DNA of 64,000 nt from positions 31,251 through 95,250 of the forward strand of contig JAJVIN010000017.1 of the NCBI GenBank assembly GCA_022071945.1, in the 5' to 3' direction. The DNA is from Thermoanaerobaculia bacterium. GTDB lineage: Bacteria > Acidobacteriota > Thermoanaerobaculia > UBA5066. A program made the translations under genes and the position numbers. Below the pieces are notes generated by a model. The model did not search any database. It was not told the DNA's origin and worked only from the letters and a program-made list of their open reading frames with translations. Of this stretch, positions 14,364-50,024 are shown piece by piece (within the stretch, counting starts at the first letter, position 1; the number at the start of each line of letters is the position of its first letter).

Positions 14364-16331
14364 TTGAATACCGAGGCACCTGGCCCCCCGAACGGTCCTT
14401 TTCAGAGCGGCGTCACGACGGCCCCAACCGGCCTCAGCACGGGGACCCATCCACACGCCGCACCCCAGGGCCGATACCTCGTCGTGCTCTCCATCGCCGC
14501 CATGGGTGTCGTTTTTGGAGACATCGGGACGAGCCCCCTCTACGCGCTTCGCGAGTGCTTCAGCGGCCCGCACGGGATTGCCCCGGCTTCGGCAAACATC
14601 CTGGGCGTTCTCTCGCTGATCTTCTGGTCGCTGCTTCTCGTCATCTCGGTCAAGTACCTGCTCTTCGTCCTCAGGGCCGACAACAGGGGCGAGGGCGGAA
14701 TCCTGGCCCTGATGTCCCTGATCATCCCGGTCCTTCCGGCCACGGCCAGCGTTCAGCGGTACCTGATGATCGCCATGGGCCTGTTCGGAGCCGCGCTCTT
14801 GTACGGCGACGGGATGATCACGCCGGCCATCACGGTCCTGTCCGCCGTCGAGGGGATGGAGGTCGCGACCCCGGCCTTCACGCCGTACATCCTGCCCGCG
14901 ACTGTTTTCATTCTGATCCTTCTCTTCCTCGTTCAGAGAAAGGGCACGGCGGGGGTCGGTGCCGTCTTCGGGCCCGTGATGCTCTTCTGGTTCGTCGTCC
15001 TGGCGGCGCTCGGCCTCTACCAGACCGTGCAGGCCCCGCAAGTGCTGGCCGCGGTGAATCCGTGGCACGGCATCTCGTTCTTCATGAGGAACGGCATCCA
15101 CGGGTTCCTCATCCTCGGTTCGGTCTTCCTCGTCGTCACCGGGGGTGAGGCTCTCTACGCGGACATGGGCCATTTCGGGGCCCGGCCGATCAAGCTGACG
15201 TGGTTCTTCGTCGTCCTGCCCGCCCTTCTCCTGAACTACTTCGGGCAGGGAGCGCTCCTCTTGAGGAATCCGGCCATGGCGGACAACCCGCTCTTCAAGA
15301 TGGCGCCGGGATGGTTCCTCTACCCGGTGGTCGCGCTCGCGACCCTGGCCTCCGTCATCGCCTCGCAGGCCGTCATCTCGGGAGCCTTTTCCCTGACGCG
15401 GCAGGCCATTCTCCTCGGGTACGTACCCCGCCTGAAGATCGATCACACCTCCGAGAAAGAGATCGGCCAGATCTACCTGCCGACTGTCAACTGGACGCTG
15501 ATGGTCTGCTGCATCTGGCTCGTCCTCGAGTTTCGCTCCTCGAGCCGGCTGGCCGCCGCCTACGGCATTGCCGTGACGACGACAATGGTCATCACCACGA
15601 TGCTCCTCTTCTTCTTCTTCACCCTGAAGTGGAAGATCAACCCCTGGATCGCCGGCCTGTCGACGGCGGCGTTCCTGATAGTCGACCTCGCGTTCTTCGG
15701 CGCCAATATCGTCAAGATCGGCCACGGCGGCTGGTTCCCGCTCGCCGTCGCCATCATCATCTACCTGTTGATGGCGACCTGGAAGCGCGGGCGCGAGATC
15801 CTCTCCGACAGGCTGCGCGAGGTCACCCTCCCCGTCGGCGTCCTGCTCGCCGACGTCGAGAAGAGGACTCCCATTCGGGTGCGAGGGACCGCCGTCTACA
15901 TGGACCGCCTGCCGGACGGCGTCCCGCCCGCCCTTTTCCACAACATGAAGCACAACAAGATCCTGCACGAGCGGGTGGTCTTCTTGACAGTGGTCGTCGA
16001 CGACGTCCCCACTGTGTCGGAACGCGAGAGGCAGCGGACGGAAAACCTCGGCTTCGGCTTCTACCGGATGACGCTCCACTATGGCTTCATGGAGAACATC
16101 GACGTCCCCGCGGCCCTGAAGCGCCTGAAGGTCGACGGCCGCGGCTTCGAGGAACTGGACACAACCTATTTCCTCGGGCGCGAGACGTTGATCGCGAGCA
16201 AGAGACCCGGCATGGCCCTGTGGCGTGAGCGGCTCTTCGCCTGGATGTCGCGCACGGAGGGACGGGCAACGTCGTTCTTCCAGATTCCGCCCGGCCGGGT
16301 CGTCGAGCTCGGAATCCAGATCGAGCTCTGA
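14364..16331 (+). CDS. kup: KUP/HAK/KT potassium uptake transporter
   Basis: GVVFGDIGTSPLYAL signature and 12 TM-like helices. The start is uncertain. There is no ATG between the purK stop and the signature, so TTG at 14364 is a guess. Confidence 0.8.
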   Translation: MNTEAPGPPNGPFQSGVTTAPTGLSTGTHPHAAPQGRYLVVLSIAAMGVVFGDIGTSPLYALRECFSGPHGIAPASANILGVLSLIFWSLLLVISVKYLLFVLRADNRGEGGILALMSLIIPVLPATASVQRYLMIAMGLFGAALLYGDGMITPAITVLSAVEGMEVATPAFTPYILPATVFILILLFLVQRKGTAGVGAVFGPVMLFWFVVLAALGLYQTVQAPQVLAAVNPWHGISFFMRNGIHGFLILGSVFLVVTGGEALYADMGHFGARPIKLTWFFVVLPALLLNYFGQGALLLRNPAMADNPLFKMAPGWFLYPVVALATLASVIASQAVISGAFSLTRQAILLGYVPRLKIDHTSEKEIGQIYLPTVNWTLMVCCIWLVLEFRSSSRLAAAYGIAVTTTMVITTMLLFFFFTLKWKINPWIAGLSTAAFLIVDLAFFGANIVKIGHGGWFPLAVAIIIYLLMATWKRGREILSDRLREVTLPVGVLLADVEKRTPIRVRGTAVYMDRLPDGVPPALFHNMKHNKILHERVVFLTVVVDDVPTVSERERQRTENLGFGFYRMTLHYGFMENIDVPAALKRLKVDGRGFEELDTTYFLGRETLIASKRPGMALWRERLFAWMSRTEGRATSFFQIPPGRVVELGIQIEL

Positions 16332-16352
16332 GCGGCCCCGAGGGGAGCGGCC

Positions 16353-17165
16353 TCAGGGCTTCGGCGAGAAGAGCTCCCTGTCGAAGGCATCGGAGAGATA
16401 CCGGGCCGCCTCCCCGCCGGCATCGAGGTCTTCACAGACGCCCGCCATCTCCGAGCAGGCCTCGGCGAGCGGTCTCCCCGATGCGAGCGACTCGTAGAAG
16501 ACCCTGGCCGCCTCGTCGATCTCGAAAAACGCGGGCTCCTCGTCCTCGCCCCTGAAGATCACGAGGCTGTGGGGCCTTCGGACGGGACGGGCGGGCGGAG
16601 AGGACTCGAGAAAGAACGCCTCCACCTCGAATTCCAGGGACAGAAACCGCACCGAGGGCCGAAAGCAGAACGTCAACTCGGGCCATTCAGCGGGCGGAAC
16701 GGGCGCCAGCATGGATCTGAGAAGCGCCGGGGCGTCCAGGGCCTGAAAACAGTCGAGCCACTCCCACTCGAGCCGCGCGAGATCCGGGAGGAACGGGAGG
16801 GAGCTCGTAAGCGGCGACGACTCAAGATGGCGCGGGAGCGGCCTCCCGAGCCATCTCAGGGAAGGTTCGGACGGGGGGTGGGCCACGAGGAAATCGGTGA
16901 CGAGGTTGTGAAAGGCCGTCTCTCCAAGGACTCCCCTGGTCCGCGGAAAGTCCTCGGCCAGAACATCCCTCAACCGGAAGAAGTACATGTTCGCGTAGAT
17001 GTCGACCCGGGCGAGGGCCCCGAGCCGCTCGTCCCCCCGAAAGTGCGCCGAGAAGAGGTCCCCGGCGGGCATTCCCGCGGCAGAGAGCCCGGCCAGGCCC
17101 CTTGCCACTCCCTCCGGAGCTTCGAGAAGGGAGAGAAAGAAGCTCTGGAGCTCTTCGAGGTTCAC
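16353..17165 (-). CDS. DUF2063-family protein (BufC/HvfC/MbnC-like partner of MNIO enzymes)
   Basis: About 270 aa, starting at a GTG that overlaps the upstream gene stop (GTGA). N-terminus VNLEELQSFFLSLLEAP. Conserved YANMYFFRL and DLARLEWEWLD blocks typical of DUF2063. Confidence 0.8.
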   Translation of the reverse strand: MNLEELQSFFLSLLEAPEGVARGLAGLSAAGMPAGDLFSAHFRGDERLGALARVDIYANMYFFRLRDVLAEDFPRTRGVLGETAFHNLVTDFLVAHPPSEPSLRWLGRPLPRHLESSPLTSSLPFLPDLARLEWEWLDCFQALDAPALLRSMLAPVPPAEWPELTFCFRPSVRFLSLEFEVEAFFLESSPPARPVRRPHSLVIFRGEDEEPAFFEIDEAARVFYESLASGRPLAEACSEMAGVCEDLDAGGEAARYLSDAFDRELFSPKP

Positions 17166-18136
17166 GAGGGGTCTCCCGGTCCCCGCCGGAGCTCCTCGTC
17201 CATCAGCCGGGCCGCTTTCTGCCGCTCCGCCGAAAGGACACTCCACTCGGGAATCTTGTCGTCCCACTCCACGAGGCTCGAGACGGCGCCGAATCGCCGG
17301 ACGGCCCGCCTGTAAAGCTCCCAGACTCGATCCGGGACAGGGTGGTCGTGCGTGTCGATCAGGAGAGGTCCCATCTCGGACGGGCCCGCGAGATGAAACT
17401 GCCAGACGGAGCCGGGCGGGATTCCCTGGAGGTAGGACTCCCGCTCCCACCCGTGGTTGTGGCACGACACGTCCAGGTTGTTCAGGTCGAGAAGGATGCC
17501 GCACCCCGTGCGAGCCGCGAGCTCCGCGAGGAATTCCCACTCTGAAAGCGTCGAATGGAGAAAGGTGACGTAGCTCGAGGCGTTCTCCAGGGCGATCGCC
17601 CGTCCGAGAAAGTCCTGGACCTGAAGGACGCGCCGCTCCACGTGGGCGAGCGACTCCTCCGTGTAGGGCAGAGGCAGGAGATCGTGCGAGTTGTGGCCCC
17701 GCGCCGAGGTGAAGCAGAGATGATCGGAGATCCACGGCGGTTCGAGCTCAGACGCCAGCCCGCGGAGCGCCTCGAGATAGTCGCCCCGGATGGGATCGCA
17801 CCCGCCGATCGAGAGAGAGACCCCGTGCAGGACGACGGGGAACCGCTCGCGGATCGAAAAGAGAATCCGGCGCGCGCGTCCGCCGGCCCCGAGGAAGTTC
17901 TCGGTGATGACCTCGAACCAGTCGCACTCGACGCTTCCCGATAGAACATCGGGGTAGTGGCACCGTCGAAGTCCGGCACCGTGGCCCAGGAAGGGCGGTC
18001 TCTGGCCCGGGGCCGGCGAAAAAACACCCCCTCCCCGCCGAGGCGTGGAGGGGGCGACGTTCCCACCCGGCGAGGAAATCAGCGGGATTTCTTCCCTTCG
18101 GCCGGCTTCTCGTTCTTGGCCTTCAGAGCCGTGCAT
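17162..18136 (-). CDS. DUF692 / MNIO (multinuclear non-haem iron-dependent oxidative enzyme; MbnB/BufB/HvfB-like TIM-barrel)
   Basis: DWFEVITENFLG, PVVLHGVSLSIGG, PPWISDHLCFTS, LLPLPYTEESLAHV, ALENASSYV, ILLDLNNLDVSCHNHG, QFHLAGP, DTHDHPVPDRVWELY. This is a near-textbook DUF692 motif set. The only in-frame start codon is the ATG at 18136. It overlaps the last 58 nt of the precursor gene in another frame. Confidence 0.9.
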   Translation of the reverse strand: MHGSEGQEREAGRREEIPLISSPGGNVAPSTPRRGGGVFSPAPGQRPPFLGHGAGLRRCHYPDVLSGSVECDWFEVITENFLGAGGRARRILFSIRERFPVVLHGVSLSIGGCDPIRGDYLEALRGLASELEPPWISDHLCFTSARGHNSHDLLPLPYTEESLAHVERRVLQVQDFLGRAIALENASSYVTFLHSTLSEWEFLAELAARTGCGILLDLNNLDVSCHNHGWERESYLQGIPPGSVWQFHLAGPSEMGPLLIDTHDHPVPDRVWELYRRAVRRFGAVSSLVEWDDKIPEWSVLSAERQKAARLMDEELRRGPGDPS

Positions 18137-18381
18137 TCCTTCTCATCGGCGGCCATGACCCAACCCTTGCCCTTGCACGAGTTCTGGCCGTGGCAGGAGT
18201 GTCCCCCCGGCACGCCGCACTCGCTCGTCGCCTTGCAGGCGTTCCCGCCGACACACTTGTACTTCTTTTCGGCCTTCGGCTTGTCGGCCGCCTTCTTGGT
18301 CTCCGCAAGGGCTCCGTTGGCGACGAGCACAGTCGCCGCCGCCATCGCGATCGCCGTCCCGAGGGCTTTCTTCTGGTTCAT
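18079..18381 (-). CDS. Small secreted Cys-rich precursor peptide (bufferin-like, DUF2282/BUF_6Cys-like)
   Basis: 100 aa. Sec signal MNQKKALGTAIAMAAATVLVANGALA with an AxA cleavage site. Lys-rich mature part with 6 Cys: KC VGGNAC KATSEC GVPGGHSC HGQNSC KGKGW...KEC. It sits immediately upstream of the DUF692-DUF2063 pair. RBS GGAAGGAGA lies 8 nt before the ATG. Confidence 0.75.
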   Translation of the reverse strand: MNQKKALGTAIAMAAATVLVANGALAETKKAADKPKAEKKYKCVGGNACKATSECGVPGGHSCHGQNSCKGKGWVMAADEKECTALKAKNEKPAEGKKSR

Positions 18382-18470
18382 GCCTGATGTCTCCTTCCCG
18401 GCACTGCCGTGGCGGCAGGCTTCGAACCAAAACTTTATAGTTTAGCACCAGATTGGCCAGGGAAACGGCA
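18382..18470 (-). promoter_or_regulatory. Putative promoter and 5'UTR of the precursor operon: a local AT-rich patch (CTAAACTATAAAGTTTTGG on the coding strand) and a 5-bp hairpin (CTGCC-GCCAC-GGCAG) just before the RBS
   Basis: An AT-rich island in an otherwise roughly 68% GC context, directly upstream of the first gene of the three-gene cluster. There is no gene upstream on the same strand for 115 bp. Confidence 0.3.
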
Positions 18471-18495
18471 ACGCCCTCGGCATCGAGACCTGTTC

Positions 18496-19596
18496 TCAGG
18501 GTGTCGCCGGGGGGGGAGGGGCCTCTTCGGGAATCAGCTTTTCCGCTTTTTCGAGCGCCTTGCGGGCGGCAGCCTCGTTGCCGAGAGCCTGCTGCGCGCG
18601 CGCGATCGCCCAGAGCGGCTCCTGGATCTTGCGATCCCTCCGGTGCGCCTGCTGGTAGTACTTGAGGGCTTCCTTGTGGTGTTTCTGCGCGAACTCGATG
18701 TCGCCCACGGCGATGAGGAAGTAGGGCGAGGCCATTCCGTGATTGGCCGCCGCCAGGGCCGCGCGGGCGTCCTCCCTGCGGCCCATCTCGAGATAGATGC
18801 TGGCCACATTGTTGAGGATCGAGGGCCGCTGCTTGTCCAGGGCGAGCCCGATGCGAAAGGCCTCGAACGCGCCTTCCTTGTCCCCCACCTTCCACCGCAC
18901 GAGGCCCAGGTTCCCGTAAATGTCGGGTAAGAGCGGAGAGAGCCGGGCGGCGGTTTCCAGAAGCTCGTGGGCCCGAGAGAGATCCCCTTGCTTGAGGGCC
19001 TCGACGCCCCAGTTGCTCGCCGAGATGGCGGCGACCTCCAGGTCATCGATCAGGACGAGCTCGCCTCTCGACTCTTGTCTCTGCTGATAGAAGTCGAAGA
19101 CGGTCGCGTTGTTGCCCTTCGGGAGCGCCGCGACCATGTGGCCGTAGACCACGACGAGGTCGCCGTGCTTGGACGTATCCCCCCTGCGGGTCAGGAGCGC
19201 GGCCTGGACGGGCTTTCCAAGACTTCGCGCCATCGCGATGAAGAGGTTCGTGAACGAAACGCAGTTCCCCTTCTTCTTGGCGAGCGTCTCCGCGGCGGTA
19301 TAGGAGGCGATCCGGTCGTACTCGAAGGTGAAGTCCTTCGAATCGAGAAGGGCGAGCTGGAGCCGCCTGAGGGGCTCGAGTGCCGTCCCTCCTCCCCCGA
19401 CCCTGAGGGCGAATTCCCGGATCTCCGGAGTGATCAGCATCGGGTGAGGAACCTTTTCGGGATCGAGCCCCTTCTTCTGCACTTCCACGGCCCAGTTCGC
19501 GGCGCTGAGGTTCAAGGCTTCCTTGGGCCTCGACGAGGCGCAGCCCGTCACGGCGAGCGAAAGGAAGAGAGCCGCGAGCGAAAAGGCCCGTCTCAT
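18496..19596 (-). CDS. Lipoprotein with a transglutaminase-like cysteine protease domain and C-terminal TPR repeats
   Basis: Start ATG at 19596 with upstream GAGGTG. MRRAFSLAALFLSLAVTGC lipobox. GNCVSFTNLFIAMARSLG matches the transglutaminase-core Cys motif. TPR-like repeats lie in the C-terminal half. Confidence 0.8.
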   Translation of the reverse strand: MRRAFSLAALFLSLAVTGCASSRPKEALNLSAANWAVEVQKKGLDPEKVPHPMLITPEIREFALRVGGGGTALEPLRRLQLALLDSKDFTFEYDRIASYTAAETLAKKKGNCVSFTNLFIAMARSLGKPVQAALLTRRGDTSKHGDLVVVYGHMVAALPKGNNATVFDFYQQRQESRGELVLIDDLEVAAISASNWGVEALKQGDLSRAHELLETAARLSPLLPDIYGNLGLVRWKVGDKEGAFEAFRIGLALDKQRPSILNNVASIYLEMGRREDARAALAAANHGMASPYFLIAVGDIEFAQKHHKEALKYYQQAHRRDRKIQEPLWAIARAQQALGNEAAARKALEKAEKLIPEEAPPPPATP

Positions 19597-19805
19597 TGAA
19601 TTCACCTCGGCAGCAGCGGCATGCTCTCCCATGGTATCTCCAGGTACGTTGGCCATGCAGAAAGAGTTGCCTGGAGCCCGAGTCTCCCTGACCTGTCCGA
19701 AAAGAGGGCCGGCTTGCGACGGACTTGGCAAAAGGGACACACCGGAAGGCGGCCGTTCGTAGAATCGAGCGGGGTGAGCCGCTGCCCACCCAGCAGGAGG
19801 TCGTC

Positions 19806-21674
19806 ATGGACTCTGAAAGCCCCTCTCGCTCCCGGGTGCTCAGGATGGCCACATCCCTCTATCAGGGCGCCGAGACGGTGATCCGCTTCGCGCTGACGTT
19901 CGTCCTTCTCGGGCTTCTCGCCGCCCTCGCCCTGGCCGTCTGGCGCGGCAGGCCGCGCGTCCCGTCCGGGGCGGCCCTCGTCTTGGACATCAAGGGGGAC
20001 ATCGTCGAGGAGCTGTCCGCCCGCTCGGCCAGAGACGTCCTTCGCGGCGCGGGCGGCGGCACGCGCCAGGAGACCTCCGCGCGCGACCTCATCGACGCCC
20101 TCAACGCCGCCCGCGACGACCGCCGCATCAAGGCCCTTCTTCTCTCGCTGGACGACATGGACGGAGCGGGGGTGGCCCGGCTTCAGGACATCCGGACGGC
20201 GCTCGTGAACTTCAAGAAGTCGGGCAAGAAGGTCGTCGCCTACGCGGACAGCTACACGCAGTACCCCTATTACCTGGCTTCCCTGGCGGATGAGATCCAC
20301 ATGCATCCGCAGGGGATCGTCCTGATCGAGGGACTCGCCCGGTATCGCATGTACTACCGAGAGGCGATCGACAAGCTCGGCCTCGAGTGGCACGTCTTCC
20401 GCGTGGGCGAGTACAAGTCCGCGGTCGAGCCGTTCCTTCTCGACGGGATGTCGCCCGAGGCCAGGGAGGCGGACCTGGACTGGATGGGCGATATCTGGCG
20501 CTCCTATCTTGCGGACGTGGCCGCCGCGAGAAAGAAGACGCCCGAAGAGCTGACGGCCCTCATCGAGAACTACGTCGGCCGCCTCGAGGAGTCCGGAGGC
20601 GACGGAGGCCGGCTCGCCCTGAAGGAAAAGCTCGTGGACAAGCTCTCCCAAAGAGACGAGCTCAGGAAGCGGATGATCGAGCTTTCGGGCGAGGACAAGA
20701 AACGCAAGTCTTTCAACCGCATCGGTTTTCGTGAGTACCTCTCCGCCCTCGGAGACGACCGGAAAAAGAAGGGCAAGGGAGACGCGGTCGCCGTCATCGT
20801 CGCCAAGGGCGAGATTCTGGGCGGGTCGCAGCCAGCGGGCACGATCGGGGGCGACTCCACGGCGGCCCTGATCAGAAAGGCCCGTGAGAACGAGGACGTC
20901 AAGGCCATCGTCCTGCGCGTGGACAGCCCCGGCGGGAGCGCCTTTGCGTCCGAGGTGATCCGGCGCGAGCTCGAGCTGGTGAGAAACGAGAAGAAACCCG
21001 TGGTCGTGTCGATGGGGGGCGTCGCTGCCTCCGGGGGCTACTGGATCTCGACATCCTCGGATGAGATCTGGGCGAACCCGAACACCATCACCGGTTCGAT
21101 CGGAATCTTCGGCATGTTCCCGAACTTCGGGAAGGCCCTCGCCAAGCACCTCGGCATCCACGTGGATGGCGTCGGGACCACGCCGCTCGCCGGGGCGTTT
21201 CGCCCCGACCGCCCCCTCGACGCCCGGGTCGCCGAGGGGATCCAGGCGACCATCAACCGGGGGTACGAGGAGTTCCTGGAGAGAGTCGCCGCTGCCCGGA
21301 AGATGAAGAAAGAGGACGTCGACAGGATCGCGCGCGGCCGCGTCTGGAGCGGCGCGGACGCCCACAAGATCGGTCTCGTCGACAAGCTCGGCGGCCTCGA
21401 GGAAGCCATCGCCTCGGCCGCTCGGAAGGCAAAGCTCCCCGGGGACCACCGCGTCCTCTACATCCAGAAGGACCTCTCGCTGAAGGAGAAGCTCCTCGGG
21501 TCGTTCACCTCCCGGGATGGCTTCCTCGCCCGTCTGCTGGCGGAGGAGGACGGACGCCCGGATTCGTCCGTCCTCCGCGTCATCGAGCAGAACCTCGAGG
21601 AAGAAGCCGGGCGGCTCGCCTCCTGGAACGATCCGCGCGGCATGTACGCTCACTGCCTGTGCGAGGTTCCCTGA
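19806..21674 (+). CDS. sppA: Signal peptide peptidase SppA, 67K type (protease IV)
   Basis: Two tandem ClpP/crotonase-like S49 domains. VVSMGGVAASGGYWIS serine region. N-terminal TM. AGGAGG lies 6 nt upstream of the ATG at 19806. An alternative start exists at 19725. Confidence 0.85.
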   Translation: MDSESPSRSRVLRMATSLYQGAETVIRFALTFVLLGLLAALALAVWRGRPRVPSGAALVLDIKGDIVEELSARSARDVLRGAGGGTRQETSARDLIDALNAARDDRRIKALLLSLDDMDGAGVARLQDIRTALVNFKKSGKKVVAYADSYTQYPYYLASLADEIHMHPQGIVLIEGLARYRMYYREAIDKLGLEWHVFRVGEYKSAVEPFLLDGMSPEAREADLDWMGDIWRSYLADVAAARKKTPEELTALIENYVGRLEESGGDGGRLALKEKLVDKLSQRDELRKRMIELSGEDKKRKSFNRIGFREYLSALGDDRKKKGKGDAVAVIVAKGEILGGSQPAGTIGGDSTAALIRKARENEDVKAIVLRVDSPGGSAFASEVIRRELELVRNEKKPVVVSMGGVAASGGYWISTSSDEIWANPNTITGSIGIFGMFPNFGKALAKHLGIHVDGVGTTPLAGAFRPDRPLDARVAEGIQATINRGYEEFLERVAAARKMKKEDVDRIARGRVWSGADAHKIGLVDKLGGLEEAIASAARKAKLPGDHRVLYIQKDLSLKEKLLGSFTSRDGFLARLLAEEDGRPDSSVLRVIEQNLEEEAGRLASWNDPRGMYAHCLCEVP

Positions 21675-22894: not shown

Positions 22895-23036
22895 GGAGCA
22901 ACTCTCCTCGGGCAAAGTCTTCCCGCAACTCGAGCGCTGAGGTTCGAGAGGGGAGCAACCGATGTACGCACCAGGGAGGGAAAGGTTCGAATCCAAGAAT
23001 GCGGCGGACGCGGAGCGGTCGAGAGGGGAACGGCGG

Positions 23037-23468
23037 ATGAAAGACGTTGGAAAGGACGAGGAGCCGGACCTCGTGTTCTTTGATGGCGACTGCACCCTGT
23101 GCCAGCGGTCAGTCCTCTTCCTGCTCCGGCGCGACCCCGAGGGGAGGCGCTTCCGTTTCGGTTCGCAGCAGGGAGAAACTTTCGAGCGGACCGTTCCGCT
23201 CGGAGCCCGTGCCGCTTTCGCGGGGAGCCTCGTCGTCGTGACCCCCCGGCAACGGGTCGAGATCCGGTCCGGTGCCGTCGTTCGGCTCTTGCACCGGCTG
23301 GGAGGGGGTTGGTCCGTCCTAGGACTTCTCTTGTCCTGGGTGCCCCTGTTCCTCCGGGACCGGACGTACGACTTGGTCGCCTGGGCCAGGAACGCGCTGC
23401 CCGGCTCGGATCGCGGCAAGGCTTGTGCGATGATTCCGGTCTCACTCCGGGGCCGGTTTCTCGCTTGA
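23037..23468 (+). CDS. Thiol-disulfide oxidoreductase, DCC family (DUF393)
   Basis: LVFFDGDCTLCQRSV motif. Confidence 0.8.
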   Translation: MKDVGKDEEPDLVFFDGDCTLCQRSVLFLLRRDPEGRRFRFGSQQGETFERTVPLGARAAFAGSLVVVTPRQRVEIRSGAVVRLLHRLGGGWSVLGLLLSWVPLFLRDRTYDLVAWARNALPGSDRGKACAMIPVSLRGRFLA

Positions 23469-33158: not shown

Positions 33159-33968
33159 ATGAAGAAGCTCCTGCGTCTATCCATTCTCGGCCTCGCGGCC
33201 GCCGTCCTGGCGGGCCCGGTTCTCGCCCAGGAGGTCAGTTTCAAGGACCCATCCGGGGATGACTTTGGTCCGGGCGCGTACACCTACCCGACCGACAAGG
33301 TTTACAAGAACGGTTCGTTCGACCTTGCCGGCTTCTCCATGAAGGTGAAGGGAGACAAGGCCGATTTCCAGGTGACCCTCAACAGCTCCCTCGAGGACCC
33401 CTGGGGCATGGGCAATGGTTTCGCCGTCCAGATGGTGTTCATCTTCATCCAGACCGACGTCAAGGAAGGCCGCTTCACCAAGACCCTCCCGGGCCTCAAC
33501 GTCCAGTTCGGGCCGGAGGACGGCTGGAACAAATGCGTTATCCTCTCCCCCCAGCCGCAGAACCGTGTCATGAGCGAAGTCGAGAGCAAGGCCTCCTGGG
33601 CAAAGAACGCGGTCGTGGTTCCGGTCCGGACCCGTGGCGCCGGCCGCGCCATCTCCGGGTCGGTTGACCTTTCCGCCCTCGGCGCGGGCGACCCGACCAA
33701 GTGGGGCTACCAGGTCATCGTGCAATCCAACGAGGGCTTCCCGGATGCCGGCGACGTCCTGACCCGGAAGGTCAACGAGTTCGAGGGCCAGCACCGCTTC
33801 GGCGGCGGCACCGATACCGACTGCGACCCGCACGCGATCGACCTCGTCGCGGGCAAGGGAACCGGCGACAAGAGTGAAATCGAAGAGCAGAAGAAGATGC
33901 TCGCCTACGAGTGCAACCCGGATGGCTCTGCCAAGAAGCTGGCGACCATCACCATGATCCGCAAGTGA
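33159..33968 (+). CDS. Secreted glucodextranase-like C-terminal domain protein
   Basis: Signal peptide MKKLLRLSILGLAAAVLAGPVLA. DPSGDDFGPGAYTYPTD matches the motif of the glucodextranase-like domain found in amylopullulanases. Confidence 0.55.
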   Translation: MKKLLRLSILGLAAAVLAGPVLAQEVSFKDPSGDDFGPGAYTYPTDKVYKNGSFDLAGFSMKVKGDKADFQVTLNSSLEDPWGMGNGFAVQMVFIFIQTDVKEGRFTKTLPGLNVQFGPEDGWNKCVILSPQPQNRVMSEVESKASWAKNAVVVPVRTRGAGRAISGSVDLSALGAGDPTKWGYQVIVQSNEGFPDAGDVLTRKVNEFEGQHRFGGGTDTDCDPHAIDLVAGKGTGDKSEIEEQKKMLAYECNPDGSAKKLATITMIRK

Positions 33969-34006
33969 AGCGGACGAACGACAACCTGACTCACTGGAGG
34001 AGTTGT

Positions 34007-36202
34007 ATGCGCTTTTCGAGAAAGCTAGCTCTCCTGGCGGCGGCTGCGGTCTTTTCGACCTCGGCGTTCGCGCAGCAGGGCCCCAAACTGACCATCGGTG
34101 GAACCACCTATACCAAGTGGCTCTGGGGCAACGCCCGCGACCAGGGCGCCCTCTTCAACTTCAAGGATGCGCCGGGCGAGGGCTGGGGCGACAACGGTCA
34201 GGGGACCGAGATCGAGCTCCTGCTCAAGGCCAAGGTCTCCCGGGCCGTCCAAGTGGACGCTCGCCTTCACAGCCGGTTCTACCAGAACTTCTGGACGAAC
34301 ATGGGCGGCTGGGGCAACCCCTCTGGCGGGAACGACTGCGCCTCTTCGGGGACGTCGGTCGGCTGTGGTGAGTTCGACCCGCGCTCGAACCAGTACGTCA
34401 AGCTCCGTGGCGTCACCGTCACCCTGACCCCCGGCTACAAGTGGATCGACTCCGCCACGATCGGTTCCTCCGACTGGGGCATGTTCGACCCGTTCGTCGT
34501 GGGCCGCATCCGCTACATCGACCGTGACAACGTCGCGGGTCTCCTCTTCCAGGGCTCCGCGATGGGCCGGAAGATGACCTGGGACGTCGCCCGCATCTCT
34601 CTGCCGCGCCTGTTCGCCGGCCCCTCCTACAACACCGGGAACTTCCACGCCGCCGACGGCGCCTACGTCTTCCAGTCGAAGATCGCGCCGAACTCGATGT
34701 TCGACATGACCGCCCTCATGGAGTGGGTGAACGACCTCGAGGTCAATGCCAAGGACATCAACTGGGACAACGGCAAGGAAACCCGGATGCGGTTCCGCCA
34801 GACCGTCTTCGGCGGCAAGCTCGGCTTCCACCCGAGCGCCAAGGTCGACGTCCGCGCCGCTGGCTACTACTCGACCTACGAGTCCGCCAACGACCTGGCC
34901 CCCGCGGACTTCTTCGGCGTCTCCGGCTTCTCTCCGGTCCCCGCTGGCAAGCACAAGGACTGGAGCGGAAAGCTCAACCTCGACTTCATCGATCCGTTCG
35001 ACGTCGGCCTGACGTTCAACATCGAAGCGTTCCACATCGGCGCCGAGTACGCGTCAGTGATGGCTGCCCGCCGTGAGTCCGACGTCCTCCTCACCGAGGG
35101 CCACGACGGCACATGGTCGGCCCCTGGCCCGACGAACGCCTCCTACGGCGTGTTCGGTGGCAACCCGACGATCATCGGCTACGGCGGCTGGTCCGGAAAC
35201 GCCCAGCAGGTCGCGACGATCAACGTCGACAACCAGTTCACCGACTTCAACGAGCCCATGGCCGAGAGCGCCATCGGTTGGGAAGGCATCACCTTCCAGC
35301 CGGTGTTCCAGAAGGGCGCCCTGGACATGGCCGCCGAGTACAGCTACATCTCCTACGACACGAACTGGCAGGCCTGGGGCAACCCGAACCGGGCGATCCT
35401 CTCCTCCCTGTATCCGAACATGGAGTCCGACGCCGGTCTCGGCCACTACCGCAATGCCTACGCGCCGTTCCAGGACAAGACCACCCAGATCGCTCTCGTC
35501 CGCGGCAAGTACGTCCTGCCGGTCGGCAAGGGCATCGACCTGTTCGGCAAGATCAAGTTCATCGACGAGACCGACAAGCGCATGAACGAGGCCCGCTACC
35601 TCCCCTACAAGGCGGGTGACTGCGCGACTTCCGGGACCCTGGGCTGCAAGGGCGAGAAGAACTTCTACTCCCCCGGCAACTCCACCGCCGATCTCTACGG
35701 CAACCCCGAAGTCATCACGGTCAACGGCGTGACCGGCTACAAGTGGAAGCCGTTCAACAGCCTCTCCGACGACGACCGCGACATGAGCTACTTCATGTTC
35801 AACCTCGGCGGCGGATACCAGTTCACGAACGACTTCTACTCCTCGCTCGAGTACGTCCGCTACAACGTCGACCTCAAGGACGGAAACACCGCGTTCCAGG
35901 CCTACAACCTGCACGAGATGGCTTCCGGCTACCACAAGAAGAACCAGATCATCTGGAAGATCCGTTACACGCTCGGCGGCATCTCCGAGTGCGGCATGGA
36001 GTACCAGTACAACTTCGGCTCTTTCGAGCCCGACTTCGGCGGCGGCTTCGTTCCGCAGCGCGCCTCGGCCGACGTGGCCAACAGCAATCACGTCGAGCCC
36101 GGCTCGCTTGGCTTCCAGAACCGCTTCGGCGGCTGGAACAGCCTCGAGACCAGGGACTTCAGCCACCAGCGCCTCAAGGCGTACATGAAGATCCTCTTCT
36201 AA
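34007..36202 (+). CDS. Outer-membrane beta-barrel protein, candidate maltodextrin porin of the locus
   Basis: RBS GGAGG lies 6 nt upstream. Signal peptide MRFSRKLALLAAAAVFSTSAFA. Aromatic and Gly-rich amphipathic strands throughout. C-terminal ...YMKILF with a terminal Phe, typical of BAM-dependent barrels. Confidence 0.6.
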   Translation: MRFSRKLALLAAAAVFSTSAFAQQGPKLTIGGTTYTKWLWGNARDQGALFNFKDAPGEGWGDNGQGTEIELLLKAKVSRAVQVDARLHSRFYQNFWTNMGGWGNPSGGNDCASSGTSVGCGEFDPRSNQYVKLRGVTVTLTPGYKWIDSATIGSSDWGMFDPFVVGRIRYIDRDNVAGLLFQGSAMGRKMTWDVARISLPRLFAGPSYNTGNFHAADGAYVFQSKIAPNSMFDMTALMEWVNDLEVNAKDINWDNGKETRMRFRQTVFGGKLGFHPSAKVDVRAAGYYSTYESANDLAPADFFGVSGFSPVPAGKHKDWSGKLNLDFIDPFDVGLTFNIEAFHIGAEYASVMAARRESDVLLTEGHDGTWSAPGPTNASYGVFGGNPTIIGYGGWSGNAQQVATINVDNQFTDFNEPMAESAIGWEGITFQPVFQKGALDMAAEYSYISYDTNWQAWGNPNRAILSSLYPNMESDAGLGHYRNAYAPFQDKTTQIALVRGKYVLPVGKGIDLFGKIKFIDETDKRMNEARYLPYKAGDCATSGTLGCKGEKNFYSPGNSTADLYGNPEVITVNGVTGYKWKPFNSLSDDDRDMSYFMFNLGGGYQFTNDFYSSLEYVRYNVDLKDGNTAFQAYNLHEMASGYHKKNQIIWKIRYTLGGISECGMEYQYNFGSFEPDFGGGFVPQRASADVANSNHVEPGSLGFQNRFGGWNSLETRDFSHQRLKAYMKILF

Positions 36203-45065: not shown

Positions 45066-48000
45066 GTGTCAGAGGAGGCCTCGATGAGCTACGCCGCTGT
45101 CGAACCGGAAGTCCCCTGGCTGGGAAGTCCTCGCTTCCGCAGGGTCCTCTCCACCGTGATCCTGGCCGCGCTCCTTCTGTTCCTCGTCGGGAGCGTCAGG
45201 GTCGCCTTGAAGAAGCCATCGGGCTCGCAGGTCTTCCTTTATGGCCAGACGGCTCTCTCGCCCGGAAAACCGGCTTCCTTCCGAGCTTTCGTGCTCGATT
45301 CCCGGGATCGCCGGCCCCTATCCGGGGCGGCCGTTTCGGCCAGGCTCGTCTCGGCTTCCGGAAAGTCCCGTCCCCTCGCTCAGGTGAAGACCGGCGAGGA
45401 TGGAACCGTCCAGATCTCCGGCGAGATCCCGCCGGATCTCCCGGAAGGCAGCTACAGGCTCGCCGTCGAGGCGGACTCTGCCGCCGGGACGAGCGAAGTC
45501 GCGCGCGACGTTTCGGTGAAACGCTCTTTTCGGACCATGGTCTCGACAGACAAGCCGATCTATCAGCCGGGACAGACCATCCACATCCGGACACTTTCCC
45601 TGCACAGCTCCGATCTGGCTCCAGTCGAGAAGCGGCCCGTCACGATCACGGTGCAGGATCCCAAGGGCAACAAGGTCTTCAAGGCCCTCAAGACCACGTC
45701 CGCATACGGGATCGCATCGGCTGACTTCGTGCTCGCCGACCAGGTCAACACCGGCGACTATGCAATCGAGGCCGTCCTGGGCGACACCGTCTCGCGCCGC
45801 AGCGTGGAAGTGAAGGTCTACACCCTTCCCAAGTACCGGATCGAGCTCTCGACGCAGCGCGGCTATTTCCAGCCGGGAGAAACCGCCGCCGTGACCCTCC
45901 GGGCGACGTACACGTTCGGCAAACCCGTGCGCGAGGCCGAGATCGTCATCACGGCCCAGGAGTTCATCGAGAAGTTCAGGCCTTTCGCCGAGGTCCGGGG
46001 CGAGACCGATGCCGAAGGGCGCTTTCGCGCCGAGATTCCCCTGCCGCGAACCTTCGCCGGCCAGGGTGTCAGGAAGGGCGACGCTCCGCTGAAGATCGAG
46101 GCAAAGGTCACGGACAAGGCGGGCCACACCCAGGAGCGTTCCCTCGACCTGACCGTCTCCGAGGAGCCGATCCGCGTCGAGGCATTCCCCGAGAGCGGCG
46201 TGCTCGTCCCCCGGGTCGAGAACATCGTCTACATCGTGACGGCCTACCCCGATGGACGGCCGGCCGAGACCACCCTGACCGTCGGAAAGGATTCGAGGTC
46301 CGTGAAGACCTCGGCTTACGGCATCGCGAAGGTCACCCTGATACCCGATGGTGGAGACCTCTCGGTGCCCATCCGGGCGACCGACTCACACGGTGCTTCC
46401 GTCTCGGTCACGCGGACGCTCAAACCGGGACCAGCGGACGGGTTCATCCTGCGCACAAGCCGGCCGGTCTACCGCGCCGGCGAGACCGCGCACCTCTCGA
46501 TCCTGTCCGCGGCCGAGTCAGGACGGGTCTTCGTCGACGCGGTCAAGGGAGGCCAGACCGTCCTGACGGACACGGTCGACATCAAGGGGCACCACGGGGA
46601 GCTGGCTCTCGATATCAGCCCCGACCTCGCCGGCACGATCGAGGTGCACGCCTACCGGCTCCTGCCAAACGGAGAGTTCGTCAGGGACAGCCGAGTCATC
46701 CAGGTGGAGCCGGCCTCGGACCTTTCGATCGGAGTGGAGCTCGACCGGGAGACCTATCGCCCCGGCGAAAAGGCGCTCTTGAAGTTCCTCGTCGAGAGGA
46801 GGAAGGGGGAGCCCGTTCAGGCGGCTCTCAGCCTCGCCGGCGTCGACGAGGCCGTCTTCGCGCTCTCCGAGATGCGCCCCGGCCTCGAGGAAGTCTTCTT
46901 CCTCCTCCAGGAGGAGATCCTGAAACCCCGCTGGGAGCTTCATGCGGCCCTGCCGGTTGCGCCCGGGAGCGTGCTTGCCGAAGGTGGCGAGCCGCGTCCA
47001 GACCGGGAGGAGGCAAAAAAGGTCCTCTTTGCGGCGGCGGGCGGATGCTCGGCGCCCCAGGTCACCGTCAGCAAGGGATACGAAGAGAAGGTCCGGCAAA
47101 CGCGGGACGAGAAGCGTGCGTACGCGCGACACGTCCTGGCGGGGCTCGCGCTCCTTCCGACGCTCCTCTTCGCCATCTCCACCCTTCTCCTCGGCTTCTA
47201 CGCGGTCGTCCGGCTGATTCACAGGGGTCAACCGGCGGACCTGAGCGCGGAGCATCACGCAGAGCTGCGGTCCACTTCGGGGTGGGTGATCTGGACCTGG
47301 ATGCTCACTCCGTACCTCGTGCTCGCGACCGCGGCGGGCTCGGCCGCGCTTCTCGGCCGGGTCTCGTACCGGTGGGAGAAGGGGGCCGGGGTCCTGGCGG
47401 CCCTGGTCCATCTCGCCCTCTTCGTCGTCCTTCTCAGGGCGGCGAAACGCTGGAAGAGTTCCCCCGCGGCAACCGCGACTCCCCTTCTGAGGAAGCTCCT
47501 CTGGACCGTTCCCACAGCTAGCATTTGCCTCGGACTCGGGTTTGTCGCGCTTCTTCTGGGACTTCAGGGCTACCCCCGTGTGATCCCCGAGGAGCTCGGC
47601 GCGATCGCCCTGGGGACGCTTCTGACCGGCACCCTGCTCATGGCGGGTTTTCTCGCGATCGCGCGCCAGTGCGCGCTCCGGCCGGCCAGCGCGGGTCGCT
47701 GGTTCTGGCTTCTTCTCAGCCGCCCGGCGGCCCTGGCGCTGCCCGCTCTTCTCATGGCGCTCGTCGCCTTCGCCGGGGCTCGACGGTCCAGCCCCATGTT
47801 GGCCGGAAAGATCGCGGATGACGGAGCGATGCGGCTCGAGATGGCCCCGCCGGCCGCCGCCGAGGCGAAAAAGCAGGACGTGATTGGCGCGCCTGCCGGC
47901 ACGCTCGTGGAACCCACGCGAGTCCGCCGGTTCTTCCCGGAAACGCTCTTCTTCCTGCCCGAGGTCATCACGGACGCGGAAGGGAAAGCCCAGGTCGAGA

Positions 48001-50024
48001 TCCCGCTCGCCGACTCCATCACGACCTGGAGGGTCGGGATGAGCGCGGTCTCGGGAAAGGGAGAACTCGGCAGTCGAGACGTGGGCCTGAGAGTCTTCCA
48101 GGACTTCTTCGTCGACGTCGACTTCCCCGCCACTCTGACCCAGCACGACTCCGTGAGCGTCCCTCTGGCCGTCTACAACTACCTCTCCGCCGCTCAGACC
48201 GTGGAGCTCGAGGTGCAGCCGGGAGACTGGTTCGAGTTGAAGGGGGATCGGGTCCGGAGGCTGAGCGTGGGACCGGGCCAGGTCACGAGCGTGTCTCTCG
48301 ACATCCGGGCCCTGAAGCCAGGCCGGCACGGCTTGACGGTGAAGGCCCGGGGCTCCTCGCAGGGAGATGCGGTCGAGCGGACGGTCACCGTCGCTCCCGA
48401 TGGCCGCCCCGTGGTCGAGACCTGGAGCGGCCGCCTTTCAGGGAAGGCCGGCCAGACGTTTACGATCCCCGAGACGGCCATCGACGGGGCGAACGATCTC
48501 TTCGTGAAGATCTACCCGGGATCCTTCAGCCAGGTCGTGGAAGGGCTCGATTCGATCCTCCGCATGCCGTCCGGCTGCTTCGAGCAGACCTCCTCGACGA
48601 CCTACCCGAACGTCCTCGTCCTCGACTACCTCAGGCGCACGAAGCAGGCCAGACCGAAGGTCGAGATGAAGGCCGCCGAGTACATCAACCTCGGCTACCA
48701 GCGCCTTCTCTCGTACGAGGTTCAAGGAGGGGGATTCGAGTGGTTCGGGAAAGCCCCCGCGCACATCGTTCTGACCGCCTACGGGCTTCTCGAGTTCCAT
48801 GACATGTCCAAGGTCCACGAAGTGGATCCCGCCGTCATCGAGAGGACGCGAAAGTGGCTCTATGGTCAGCAGAAGGCAGATGGAACGTGGGAGCCGGCCG
48901 CCGGGGGGATCGCCGAGGGGGCCATCAACGCCTTTCAGGGGGCCACGCTCCGCACGACGGCGTACGTCGCGTGGGCCCTGGCGGAGACGGGGGACAAGGA
49001 TCCTCGGCTCGGCCGTGCTCTCGATCACCTCTCGCGCCCCTCGACGTGGCAGGCCGCCGGGGACGACGCCTACGCCCTCGCCCTGACCGGCAACGCCCTC
49101 GCCTCTGCTGGCCGGAATTCCGAGGCGGCTCCCGTTCTCGAGAAGTTGATGAAGCTCTCGGTTGCCGAAGGAGAGACCCTCCACTGGCAACCGAAGTCCT
49201 CCGGGGTCACCGAGTCTCGTGGGAGAGCCTTCGAGATCGAGACGACGTCGATCGCGGCTCAGGCCCTGATGAAGTCCCAGTACGACGTGGCCGCCGCGCA
49301 CAAGGCGCTCGCCTGGCTCGTTTCGAAGAAGGACTCCTTCGGCACGTGGAGCTCGACCCAGGCGACCATTCAGGCGATGAGGGCCCTGCTCGGAGGGTCC
49401 GAGCCGGGTGGTGGGAAAGGGAGCGCCAAGGTTGCCGTCGCGGCAAATGGTCGCTCCGTCGAGTCGCTCGAGATCACACCCGAGACGAGTGATGTCTTTC
49501 GCCTCGTCAGCCTGAGGAATGAAGTGCGGCCGGGTCAGAACGAGGTCGCCATCGAGCTGACGGGCGAGGGGAACCTCGCCTACCAGATCGTGGCGACGCA
49601 CTACGTGCCGTGGGGCGCCAGGAGTGAGGCGAAAGAAGAGCCCGCTATGTCGATCGAGCTCACCTACGACACCAGGCAGGTCAGAAGAGATGCGATCCTG
49701 AAGGTTGGGGCCCTCGTCAGGTACAACCGGCCGGGCGCGGCCAGGATGGTGGTCGTCGACCTCGGCATCCCTCCGGGCTTCGATGTCGATCCGAAAACCT
49801 TCGAGGACATGAAAGCGACCGGCCGAATCGAGCGCTTCTCCTTGACCTCCCGTCAGGTGATCCTCTACATCGAGGAGCTCGAAAACGAAAAGGCGCTCGC
49901 GTTCTCGTACACGCTTCGGGCCCGGTACCCGGTGAGGGCAAAGACGCCGGTCTCGGCCGCCTACCCCTACTACGAACCCGAGGCCCGGAGCGAGGCCAAA
50001 CCCACGGAGCTCGTGATCGAGTAG
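45066..50024 (+). CDS. Alpha-2-macroglobulin family protein (MG domains, thioester motif CFEQ) with an internal polytopic membrane insertion
   Basis: 1652 aa. N-terminal signal anchor. Repeated MG/bMG beta-sandwich regions. GCFEQTSSTTYPNV is a thioester-like CxEQ. Residues around 685-930 form 6-8 strongly hydrophobic helices in the same uninterrupted frame. Confidence 0.8.
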   Translation: MSEEASMSYAAVEPEVPWLGSPRFRRVLSTVILAALLLFLVGSVRVALKKPSGSQVFLYGQTALSPGKPASFRAFVLDSRDRRPLSGAAVSARLVSASGKSRPLAQVKTGEDGTVQISGEIPPDLPEGSYRLAVEADSAAGTSEVARDVSVKRSFRTMVSTDKPIYQPGQTIHIRTLSLHSSDLAPVEKRPVTITVQDPKGNKVFKALKTTSAYGIASADFVLADQVNTGDYAIEAVLGDTVSRRSVEVKVYTLPKYRIELSTQRGYFQPGETAAVTLRATYTFGKPVREAEIVITAQEFIEKFRPFAEVRGETDAEGRFRAEIPLPRTFAGQGVRKGDAPLKIEAKVTDKAGHTQERSLDLTVSEEPIRVEAFPESGVLVPRVENIVYIVTAYPDGRPAETTLTVGKDSRSVKTSAYGIAKVTLIPDGGDLSVPIRATDSHGASVSVTRTLKPGPADGFILRTSRPVYRAGETAHLSILSAAESGRVFVDAVKGGQTVLTDTVDIKGHHGELALDISPDLAGTIEVHAYRLLPNGEFVRDSRVIQVEPASDLSIGVELDRETYRPGEKALLKFLVERRKGEPVQAALSLAGVDEAVFALSEMRPGLEEVFFLLQEEILKPRWELHAALPVAPGSVLAEGGEPRPDREEAKKVLFAAAGGCSAPQVTVSKGYEEKVRQTRDEKRAYARHVLAGLALLPTLLFAISTLLLGFYAVVRLIHRGQPADLSAEHHAELRSTSGWVIWTWMLTPYLVLATAAGSAALLGRVSYRWEKGAGVLAALVHLALFVVLLRAAKRWKSSPAATATPLLRKLLWTVPTASICLGLGFVALLLGLQGYPRVIPEELGAIALGTLLTGTLLMAGFLAIARQCALRPASAGRWFWLLLSRPAALALPALLMALVAFAGARRSSPMLAGKIADDGAMRLEMAPPAAAEAKKQDVIGAPAGTLVEPTRVRRFFPETLFFLPEVITDAEGKAQVEIPLADSITTWRVGMSAVSGKGELGSRDVGLRVFQDFFVDVDFPATLTQHDSVSVPLAVYNYLSAAQTVELEVQPGDWFELKGDRVRRLSVGPGQVTSVSLDIRALKPGRHGLTVKARGSSQGDAVERTVTVAPDGRPVVETWSGRLSGKAGQTFTIPETAIDGANDLFVKIYPGSFSQVVEGLDSILRMPSGCFEQTSSTTYPNVLVLDYLRRTKQARPKVEMKAAEYINLGYQRLLSYEVQGGGFEWFGKAPAHIVLTAYGLLEFHDMSKVHEVDPAVIERTRKWLYGQQKADGTWEPAAGGIAEGAINAFQGATLRTTAYVAWALAETGDKDPRLGRALDHLSRPSTWQAAGDDAYALALTGNALASAGRNSEAAPVLEKLMKLSVAEGETLHWQPKSSGVTESRGRAFEIETTSIAAQALMKSQYDVAAAHKALAWLVSKKDSFGTWSSTQATIQAMRALLGGSEPGGGKGSAKVAVAANGRSVESLEITPETSDVFRLVSLRNEVRPGQNEVAIELTGEGNLAYQIVATHYVPWGARSEAKEEPAMSIELTYDTRQVRRDAILKVGALVRYNRPGAARMVVVDLGIPPGFDVDPKTFEDMKATGRIERFSLTSRQVILYIEELENEKALAFSYTLRARYPVRAKTPVSAAYPYYEPEARSEAKPTELVIE

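Follow-up and report, generated by a model that had tools for sequence, protein, structure and literature searches.

Three co-directional minus-strand open reading frames (ORFs), read from a 64,000-nucleotide stretch of contig JAJVIN010000017.1 (assembly GCA_022071945.1), are most probably a bufA2-bufB2-bufC2 operon for a Buf2-type bufferin ('Cys-Lys' captophorins) in an uncultured bacterium of Thermoanaerobaculia (Acidobacteriota). The whole stretch is hereafter called the window, and we put the probability of this reading at about 0.85. An earlier note, made from the letters of the window, had proposed at this place three coupled minus-strand genes forming an MNIO-type, bufferin-like cluster for a peptide made by the ribosome and modified after translation (RiPP), with a Sec-exported six-Cys precursor, a DUF692 oxidase and a DUF2063 partner. 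The three genes are present where the note had placed them, and hidden Markov model (HMM) searches, conservation, a structure model and gene order agree with the proposal. A chance origin can be dismissed on the HMM E-values (7e-99 for PF05114, 3.5e-17 for PF09836 and 5e-16 for BufA2), the six invariant Cys and the recurrence of the precursor on 14 contigs.

The window has a G+C content of 66%, and all three ORFs have the high G+C content at third codon positions (GC3) that is typical of its real genes (0.81 for bufB). A precursor of identical sequence was found on 14 contigs from independent assemblies, including GCA_023151375.1 and GCA_020845555.1, and GenBank places the identical proteins in metagenome-assembled genomes of Thermoanaerobaculia or Acidobacteriota. 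The operon and its synteny are also kept in a sister lineage (locus L089), in which precursor identity is 78%, and this retention, together with that in the independent assemblies, suggests that the operon is under selection. No promoter was found by a sigma-70 scan of positions 15800-20200 and no family was matched by an Rfam scan of positions 15800-19900.

This is an ordinary Buf2 operon of a known and widespread kind, and its only unusual point is the context of the bufB start. It adds one operon from an uncultured member of Thermoanaerobaculia to a family that is counted in thousands, and MNIO clusters have already been recorded in Acidobacteriota. In GenBank the genes still go under 'DUF692 domain-containing protein' and under 'putative DNA-binding domain-containing protein', and the precursor lies just under the naming cutoff. 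The records could be re-annotated.

Precursor, maturase and partner protein

The precursor, BufA, matched the NCBI model NF050166 ('BufA2 family periplasmic bufferin-type metallophore'; the BUF_6/12Cys model) with an E-value of 5.2e-16 and 58.6 bits over profile positions 2-75 of 79, where the curated cutoff is 60 bits. The earlier note had compared it with both DUF2282 and 'BUF_6Cys' precursors; the latter likeness is seen, though just below the cutoff, and the former is not, as BufA had no Pfam match at E<=0.01 and thus none to PF10048 (DUF2282). A database search found 51 homologues, of which 35 were aligned, and all 35 matched NF050166. In this alignment Cys43, Cys49, Cys55, Cys63, Cys69 and Cys83 are invariant, as are the columns G45, N47, K50, N67, K70, G71 and G73, so that there are two invariant Cys-Lys dyads (C49-K50 and C69-K70). 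The conservation of the Cys residues, which the note had named as a check, is therefore complete. Its written Cys pattern is right overall but one residue short between Cys55 and Cys63, which are separated by seven residues, not six.

The N-terminus of BufA has the features of a Sec signal: an n-region with K4-K5, a hydrophobic stretch at residues 6-25 (hydropathy peak 2.45 in an 11-residue window) and a cleavage-type site, ALA|ET, that obeys the -3/-1 rule. The hydrophobic N-terminus is kept in the aligned homologues. The predicted core of 74 aa is rich in Lys (16 residues), and the Sec signal and Lys-rich mature region described earlier are thereby borne out together with the six Cys. No EGKCG motif occurs in the BufA sequence, and a sequence search of the PDB found nothing for it.

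The second protein, BufB, reached 330.7 bits against PF05114 (MbnB_TglH_ChrH), which bears out the DUF692 assignment. It also passed the cutoff of the 'MNIO family bufferin maturase' equivalog NF050167 (MNIO_BufB; 342.9 bits, cutoff 310), the match beginning at residue 52-53. The score against MbnB (TIGR04159) was below the cutoff (57.5 vs 325 bits), and those against the NCBIfam models of ApyH and ChrH were below their cutoffs too. In 57 homologues H104, D138-H139, E183-N184, D217, N219-N220, H249, D262, H264, E290 and D292 are invariant, and we take these His, Asp, Glu and Asn motifs as the putative MNIO metal site. The nearest solved chain is 3BWW (E=1.3e-39), whose 'ERDF' aligns with the 'EWDD' of BufB (E290-W-D292-D293). 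Through this alignment, Asp292 may be equated with Asp249 of FonB, the proposed catalytic base. The following residue, Asp293, is present in 46 of the 57 homologues. At the position of FonB Phe250, which is a specificity determinant, the Cys-Lys group of MNIOs is reported to carry Asp, and this Asp has been modelled touching the substrate Lys (PMC13097082); Asp293 would accordingly fit the two invariant Cys-Lys dyads of BufA.

The third protein, BufC, scored 62.9 bits against PF09836 (cutoff 27.2), and its assignment to DUF2063 is thus confirmed by HMM. An alignment of 63 homologues was made, and NCBI gives one homologue the name 'HvfC/BufC family peptide modification chaperone'. A sequence search of the PDB found nothing for BufC, and its AlphaFold model (mean predicted local distance difference test score, pLDDT, 95.3) was compared with solved structures by Foldseek. 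The best PDB matches of the model were TglI (8HI7_A; E=4e-7, TM 0.67) and NGO1945 (3DEE; E=3e-5, target-normalised TM 0.73). TglI is the partner of the MNIO TglH, and NGO1945 is the PME1 prototype. The C-terminal part has a weak likeness to TbiB1, a protein with a RiPP recognition element (RRE), with an E-value of about 0.3.

Operon organisation and proposed function

The gene bufA lies directly upstream of bufB, and the three genes run in the order A-B-C, which is the conserved gene order of the family (PMC12452194). For comparison, we collected 80 related loci from species-representative genomes, 75 of them informative. A-B-C order was found in 46, A-B without a C detectable by BLAST in 7, B-C upstream of A in 2, and a stand-alone precursor in 20. 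A DoxX-like ORF was present in only 3 of the 75, and in only one of these three does it follow bufC co-directionally. The absence of DoxX and of a sigma/anti-sigma pair, as noted earlier, was confirmed: with an HMM built from DoxX sequences of the related loci and with tblastn no DoxX was found in the 64-kb window, nor was a second precursor, an extracytoplasmic function (ECF) sigma factor or a copper gene found there. The conclusion drawn from this absence, that the locus may be a minimal or divergent subtype, does not hold. In Caulobacter vibrioides the founding, experimentally studied buf2 operon likewise consists of bufA2B2C2; it "lacks a bufD1-like gene", and even buf1 can do without DoxX (PMC11626156). 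Sigma/anti-sigma genes accompany Buf1 and not Buf2.

A transglutaminase-like TPR lipoprotein had also been pointed out as a neighbour of the cluster. It is indeed present as the upstream gene, with a transglutaminase core, TPR and a lipobox-like ...LAVTG|C, but a role as a cluster member was rejected: it occurs only in the close relatives L089, L093 and L171, which share the local synteny SppA-TGase-bufABC-Kup-PurK, and is absent from the other 80 loci.

Several variations of the operon were observed among the relatives. In the nearest species-representative relative (L009:5958-8078, Thermoanaerobaculia ACID-3) a single ORF encodes BufB joined to BufC by a linker of about 45 residues, and PF05114 and PF09836 are likewise found in a single protein in P0122 and P0157. 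A protein of 132-150 aa with a histidine-triad-like motif (FHYHLHLYPR) is encoded between bufA and bufB in three loci of 'delta proteobacterium'/Binataceae (L014:6342-6740, L016:3829-4269 and L058:6284-6736). In about 20 Binatia-type loci (e.g., L015:8082-9197, L025:2323-3459 and L041:8405-9502) bufC is followed by a gene whose conserved product, about 370 aa long, is 70-95% identical from locus to locus and has no Pfam match; as it is absent from the window, it was set aside.

The operon may work as follows. A strong ribosome-binding site precedes bufA, and a stem-loop with U6 after the gene probably ends or stabilises most transcripts, which would leave more precursor than enzyme mRNA. Read-through transcripts would give BufB, presumably a multi-iron O2-dependent oxidase, and BufC, which combines DUF2063 with an RRE-like domain. 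The stop of bufB and the start of bufC share the GTGA at 17162-17165, an overlap that the earlier note had correctly recorded, and by the sequence the two genes are translationally coupled through it. In the cytoplasm, as in the homologous Caulobacter and Fontimonas/Haemophilus systems, the BufB-BufC pair would bind the precursor and oxidise Cys by four electrons to 5-thiooxazoles. If Caulobacter Buf2 is taken as a guide, this would happen at the four central Cys (49, 55, 63 and 69), and a disulfide would link Cys43 to Cys83. The peptide would then be exported by Sec and cut by signal peptidase, probably after Ala26, and its mature form of 74 residues would bind surplus Cu(I)/Cu(II) in the periplasm, again as its homologues suggest. 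A mass shift of -16 Da from modification (four Cys, -4.03 Da each) and a single disulfide are seen in the Caulobacter Buf2 product, which confers protection against copper (PMC11626156). The 5-thiooxazole has been confirmed for bufferins (10.64898/2025.12.15.693703) and for related MNIO-PME1 systems (PMC13097082).

Several points weigh against this reading. The BufA score is 1.4 bits under the trusted cutoff of BufA2, and bufB of the window strain is without a canonical start beside its conserved core. The window is free of copper-related genes, ECF sigma factors and DoxX, which leaves the copper link without support from local context. The chemistry and metal binding that we propose are drawn entirely from homology. 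The span from CysI to CysVI of BufA is 40 residues, which disagrees with the Caulobacter BufA2 numbering (CysI = 24, CysVI = 50; PMC11626156). Finally, the AlphaFold model of BufA, made with 35 homologues, is poor (pLDDT 53).

The lack of a copper gene, and of any copper-responsive regulator, within 64 kb would also fit a different role of the same 5-thiooxazole chemistry, directed to gold, mercury, silver or zinc, or to periplasmic redox or sulphur stress, instead of copper buffering, and the literature connects some bufferin clusters with induction by gold, with MerC fusions and with further stresses (PMC12452194). We regard such a role as unlikely here, as Buf1 and Buf2 of Caulobacter are both copper-induced and both copper-protective (PMC11626156) and related 5-thiooxazole peptides are tied to copper detoxification (PMC13097082).

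Table 1. Features of the putative buf2 operon in the window.
Feature	Position	Strand	Basis
bufA, putative Buf2-type bufferin precursor, 100 aa	18079..18381	-	NF050166 match, Cys pattern
Predicted Sec signal peptide of bufA, residues 1-26	18304..18381	-	Composition and hydropathy
Shine-Dalgarno AAGGAG, 9 nt upstream of bufA ATG	18391..18396	-	Sequence
Terminator-like stem-loop and U6, within the long bufB ORF	18019..18056	-	Folding, shuffles
bufB, putative MNIO (DUF692) bufferin maturase, longest ORF 324 aa	17162..18136	-	PF05114, NF050167
bufC, putative DUF2063/PME1 partner, 270 aa, GTG start	16353..17165	-	PF09836, AlphaFold model and Foldseek

The stem-loop and the start of bufB

Starting 23 nt past the bufA stop, there is a G+C-rich stem of 10 bp (18025-18056) and, after it, U6 (18019-18024). 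The hairpin of the window is more stable than all 10 of its dinucleotide shuffles. The same comparison was made for 38 related loci with a bufA-bufB spacer of 50-260 nt. The hairpin surpassed all 10 shuffles in 22 of them, where about 3-4 would be expected by chance, and the observed mean was -24.4 kcal/mol vs -17.4 kcal/mol for the shuffled sequences. T-runs follow the hairpin in several related loci, and the orthologous hairpin of L089 has a different arm sequence. Because hairpins exceed shuffles in 22 of the 38 loci, the stem-loop after the precursor gene is a recurrent feature of the family. It is not mentioned in the bufferin papers that we searched for it. A simple terminator scan overlooked the bufA hairpin, likely because it admits only loops of 3-8 nt. 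In a RiPP operon such a hairpin may act as an attenuator or as a 3' stabiliser that raises the precursor:enzyme mRNA ratio, and the recurrent stem-loop could offer a simple and general means of adjusting the stoichiometry of precursor to enzyme.

In BufB the conserved part extends from Phe49 (17992) as far as the stop, and the MNIO core begins at about residue 49-53. Gene callers and GenBank start bufB at ATG 18136 (324 aa), which is the only in-frame canonical start and is made by the bufA codons Glu82 (GAA) and Cys83 (TGC). The overlap of 58 nt (18079-18136) between the precursor and DUF692 genes given in the earlier note is thus arithmetically right and agrees with these annotations, but it depends on the choice of this ATG; since the conserved core begins only at about residue 49-53, the overlap does not establish the translation start. 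Conservation cannot decide the matter either, because at the CysVI codon the bufA coding sequence itself imposes an ATG or GTG. Between the hairpin and the conserved PFLGHG motif of the window bufB there is no ATG, GTG or TTG.

Some relatives have a start in this interval. In L089 the hairpin is followed by AGGAGA and a TTG start five codons ahead of the conserved Phe-Leu-Gly-His-Gly, and at the same position L106 has ATG and L122 GTG, where the window has GGC. In the strain variant L171 (L171:2375-2560, compared with window 17960-18145) TTG stands in place of the window's TCG, which is codon 40 in the long ORF of bufB. The TTG is a canonical start just past the hairpin, BufB of L171 is called as 285 aa, and the U-tract of L171 is interrupted. 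BufB of the window would therefore either carry some 48 extra, non-conserved residues at its N-terminus, read through the hairpin, or start at a non-canonical codon beyond the hairpin. The former would allow a mechanism that we suggest only tentatively and consider rather doubtful: bufB would have no start codon of its own and would be translated from ATG 18136 through the hairpin, and ribosomes in the overlapping frame would decide whether the hairpin forms, thereby setting the precursor:enzyme ratio.

An operon that is decaying or poorly expressed, with a bufB that has lost its start and sits behind an intrinsic terminator and a precursor that is exported unmodified, would account for the missing start codon and for the starts that L089 and L171 have in this interval. 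This is very unlikely, as the bufB and bufC frames are intact with every family-invariant residue retained, the frame is open from ATG 18136, the 324-aa ORF is the same in several independent assemblies, and the GC3 of bufB is typical of coding sequence.

A further start context was observed in L094, L095, L097-L102 and L009-L011 (Holophagales/Thermoanaerobaculia-like), in which the bufA stop lies 8-20 nt before PFLGHG and no canonical start is present between the two. In the clade of L094-L102 and L009-L011, bufB may start at a CUG overlapping the bufA stop (CUGA). The sequence CTGA, in which CTG overlaps the stop, occurs in these loci, and in most of them the CTG occupies the same codon as the ATG, GTG or TTG start of other lineages, L097 and L009 being offset. 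Initiation at CUG or termination-reinitiation may take place at these junctions, or else initiation at a GTG that the Glu-CysVI codons form about 20 codons upstream. Such unusual start contexts of bufB in Acidobacteriota matter to anyone cloning these genes.

Related systems and other genes in the window

Among characterized systems, the closest likeness is to Buf2 of Caulobacter vibrioides (bufA2B2C2, CCNA_03001-02999; BUF_6/12Cys), which shares the three-gene A-B-C arrangement, the lack of DoxX, a six-Cys precursor with a Sec signal, a BufB-type MNIO and a DUF2063 (PME1) partner. That system is from Alphaproteobacteria, whereas the window operon is from Acidobacteriota (Thermoanaerobaculia). 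The window operon also differs in several features: its precursor, with tails rich in Lys at both the N- and the C-terminus, falls slightly short of the BufA2 cutoff; no SigF/NrsF genes are visible in the window; between bufA and bufB there is a stem-loop with U6; and the start of bufB is ambiguous. The Buf1/gig operons (bufA1B1C1D1) of Caulobacter and Cupriavidus have the same type of enzyme and partner and a Sec-exported precursor, and they would share the 5-thiooxazole chemistry and periplasmic copper chelation. Their precursors, in contrast, have four Cys and match PF10048, and their clusters usually include DoxX and often sigma/NrsF genes, none of which is at the window locus. In methanobactin biosynthesis (MbnABC), too, an MNIO-fold enzyme and a partner modify Cys of a ribosomal peptide to give a copper-binding product; the differences are its oxazolone-thioamide chemistry, its leader peptide with dedicated export, its role in copper acquisition and not buffering, and the low MbnB score of the window enzyme given above.

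The systems with EGKCG-repeat precursors and HvfB-type MNIOs ('Lys-Cys' captophorins), namely HvfABC (oxazolin), fontiphorin, gonophorin and bulbicupramide, likewise combine an MNIO, a PME1 partner and signal-peptide precursors, and their products are 5-thiooxazoles after structural revision (PMC13097082). Of the description 'bufferin/HvfABC-like' previously given to the cluster, the bufferin half stands for the enzyme (343 bits, cutoff 310) and the Hvf half does not: that the locus is an HvfABC/oxazolin-type system and not Buf2 is scarcely credible and is disfavoured by the HMM cutoffs, as the matches to HvfB (NF003818; 216.2 bits, cutoff 360) and to the NCBIfam HvfC model (60 bits, cutoff 142) are significant though below threshold, and as BufA is without the EGKCG repeat and BufB has Asp, not Phe, after Asp292, even if the nearest solved MNIO, 3BWW, stems from a Histophilus somni locus with a PME1 partner.

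Other genes of the window were recorded in passing. A DCC1-like thiol-disulfide oxidoreductase (PF04134) is encoded at 22962-23468 on the plus strand, about 4.6 kb upstream of bufA, and also at L001:4914-5345; in the window it is separated from bufA by DUF2911, SppA and TGase-TPR genes, and no link to the buf operon is evident. A 1652-aa bacterial alpha-2-macroglobulin (45066-50024, plus strand) and a 1634-aa hybrid sensor kinase with Reg_prop/Y_Y_Y, two receiver domains and Hpt (50062-54966, minus strand) are ordinary and unrelated to the buf operon. A 763-aa ORF at 33911-36202 on the plus strand, which has a GC3 of 0.91 and no Pfam family, is probably a real gene and follows a sugar ABC-transporter set and a Glucodextran_C/SLH-like protein.

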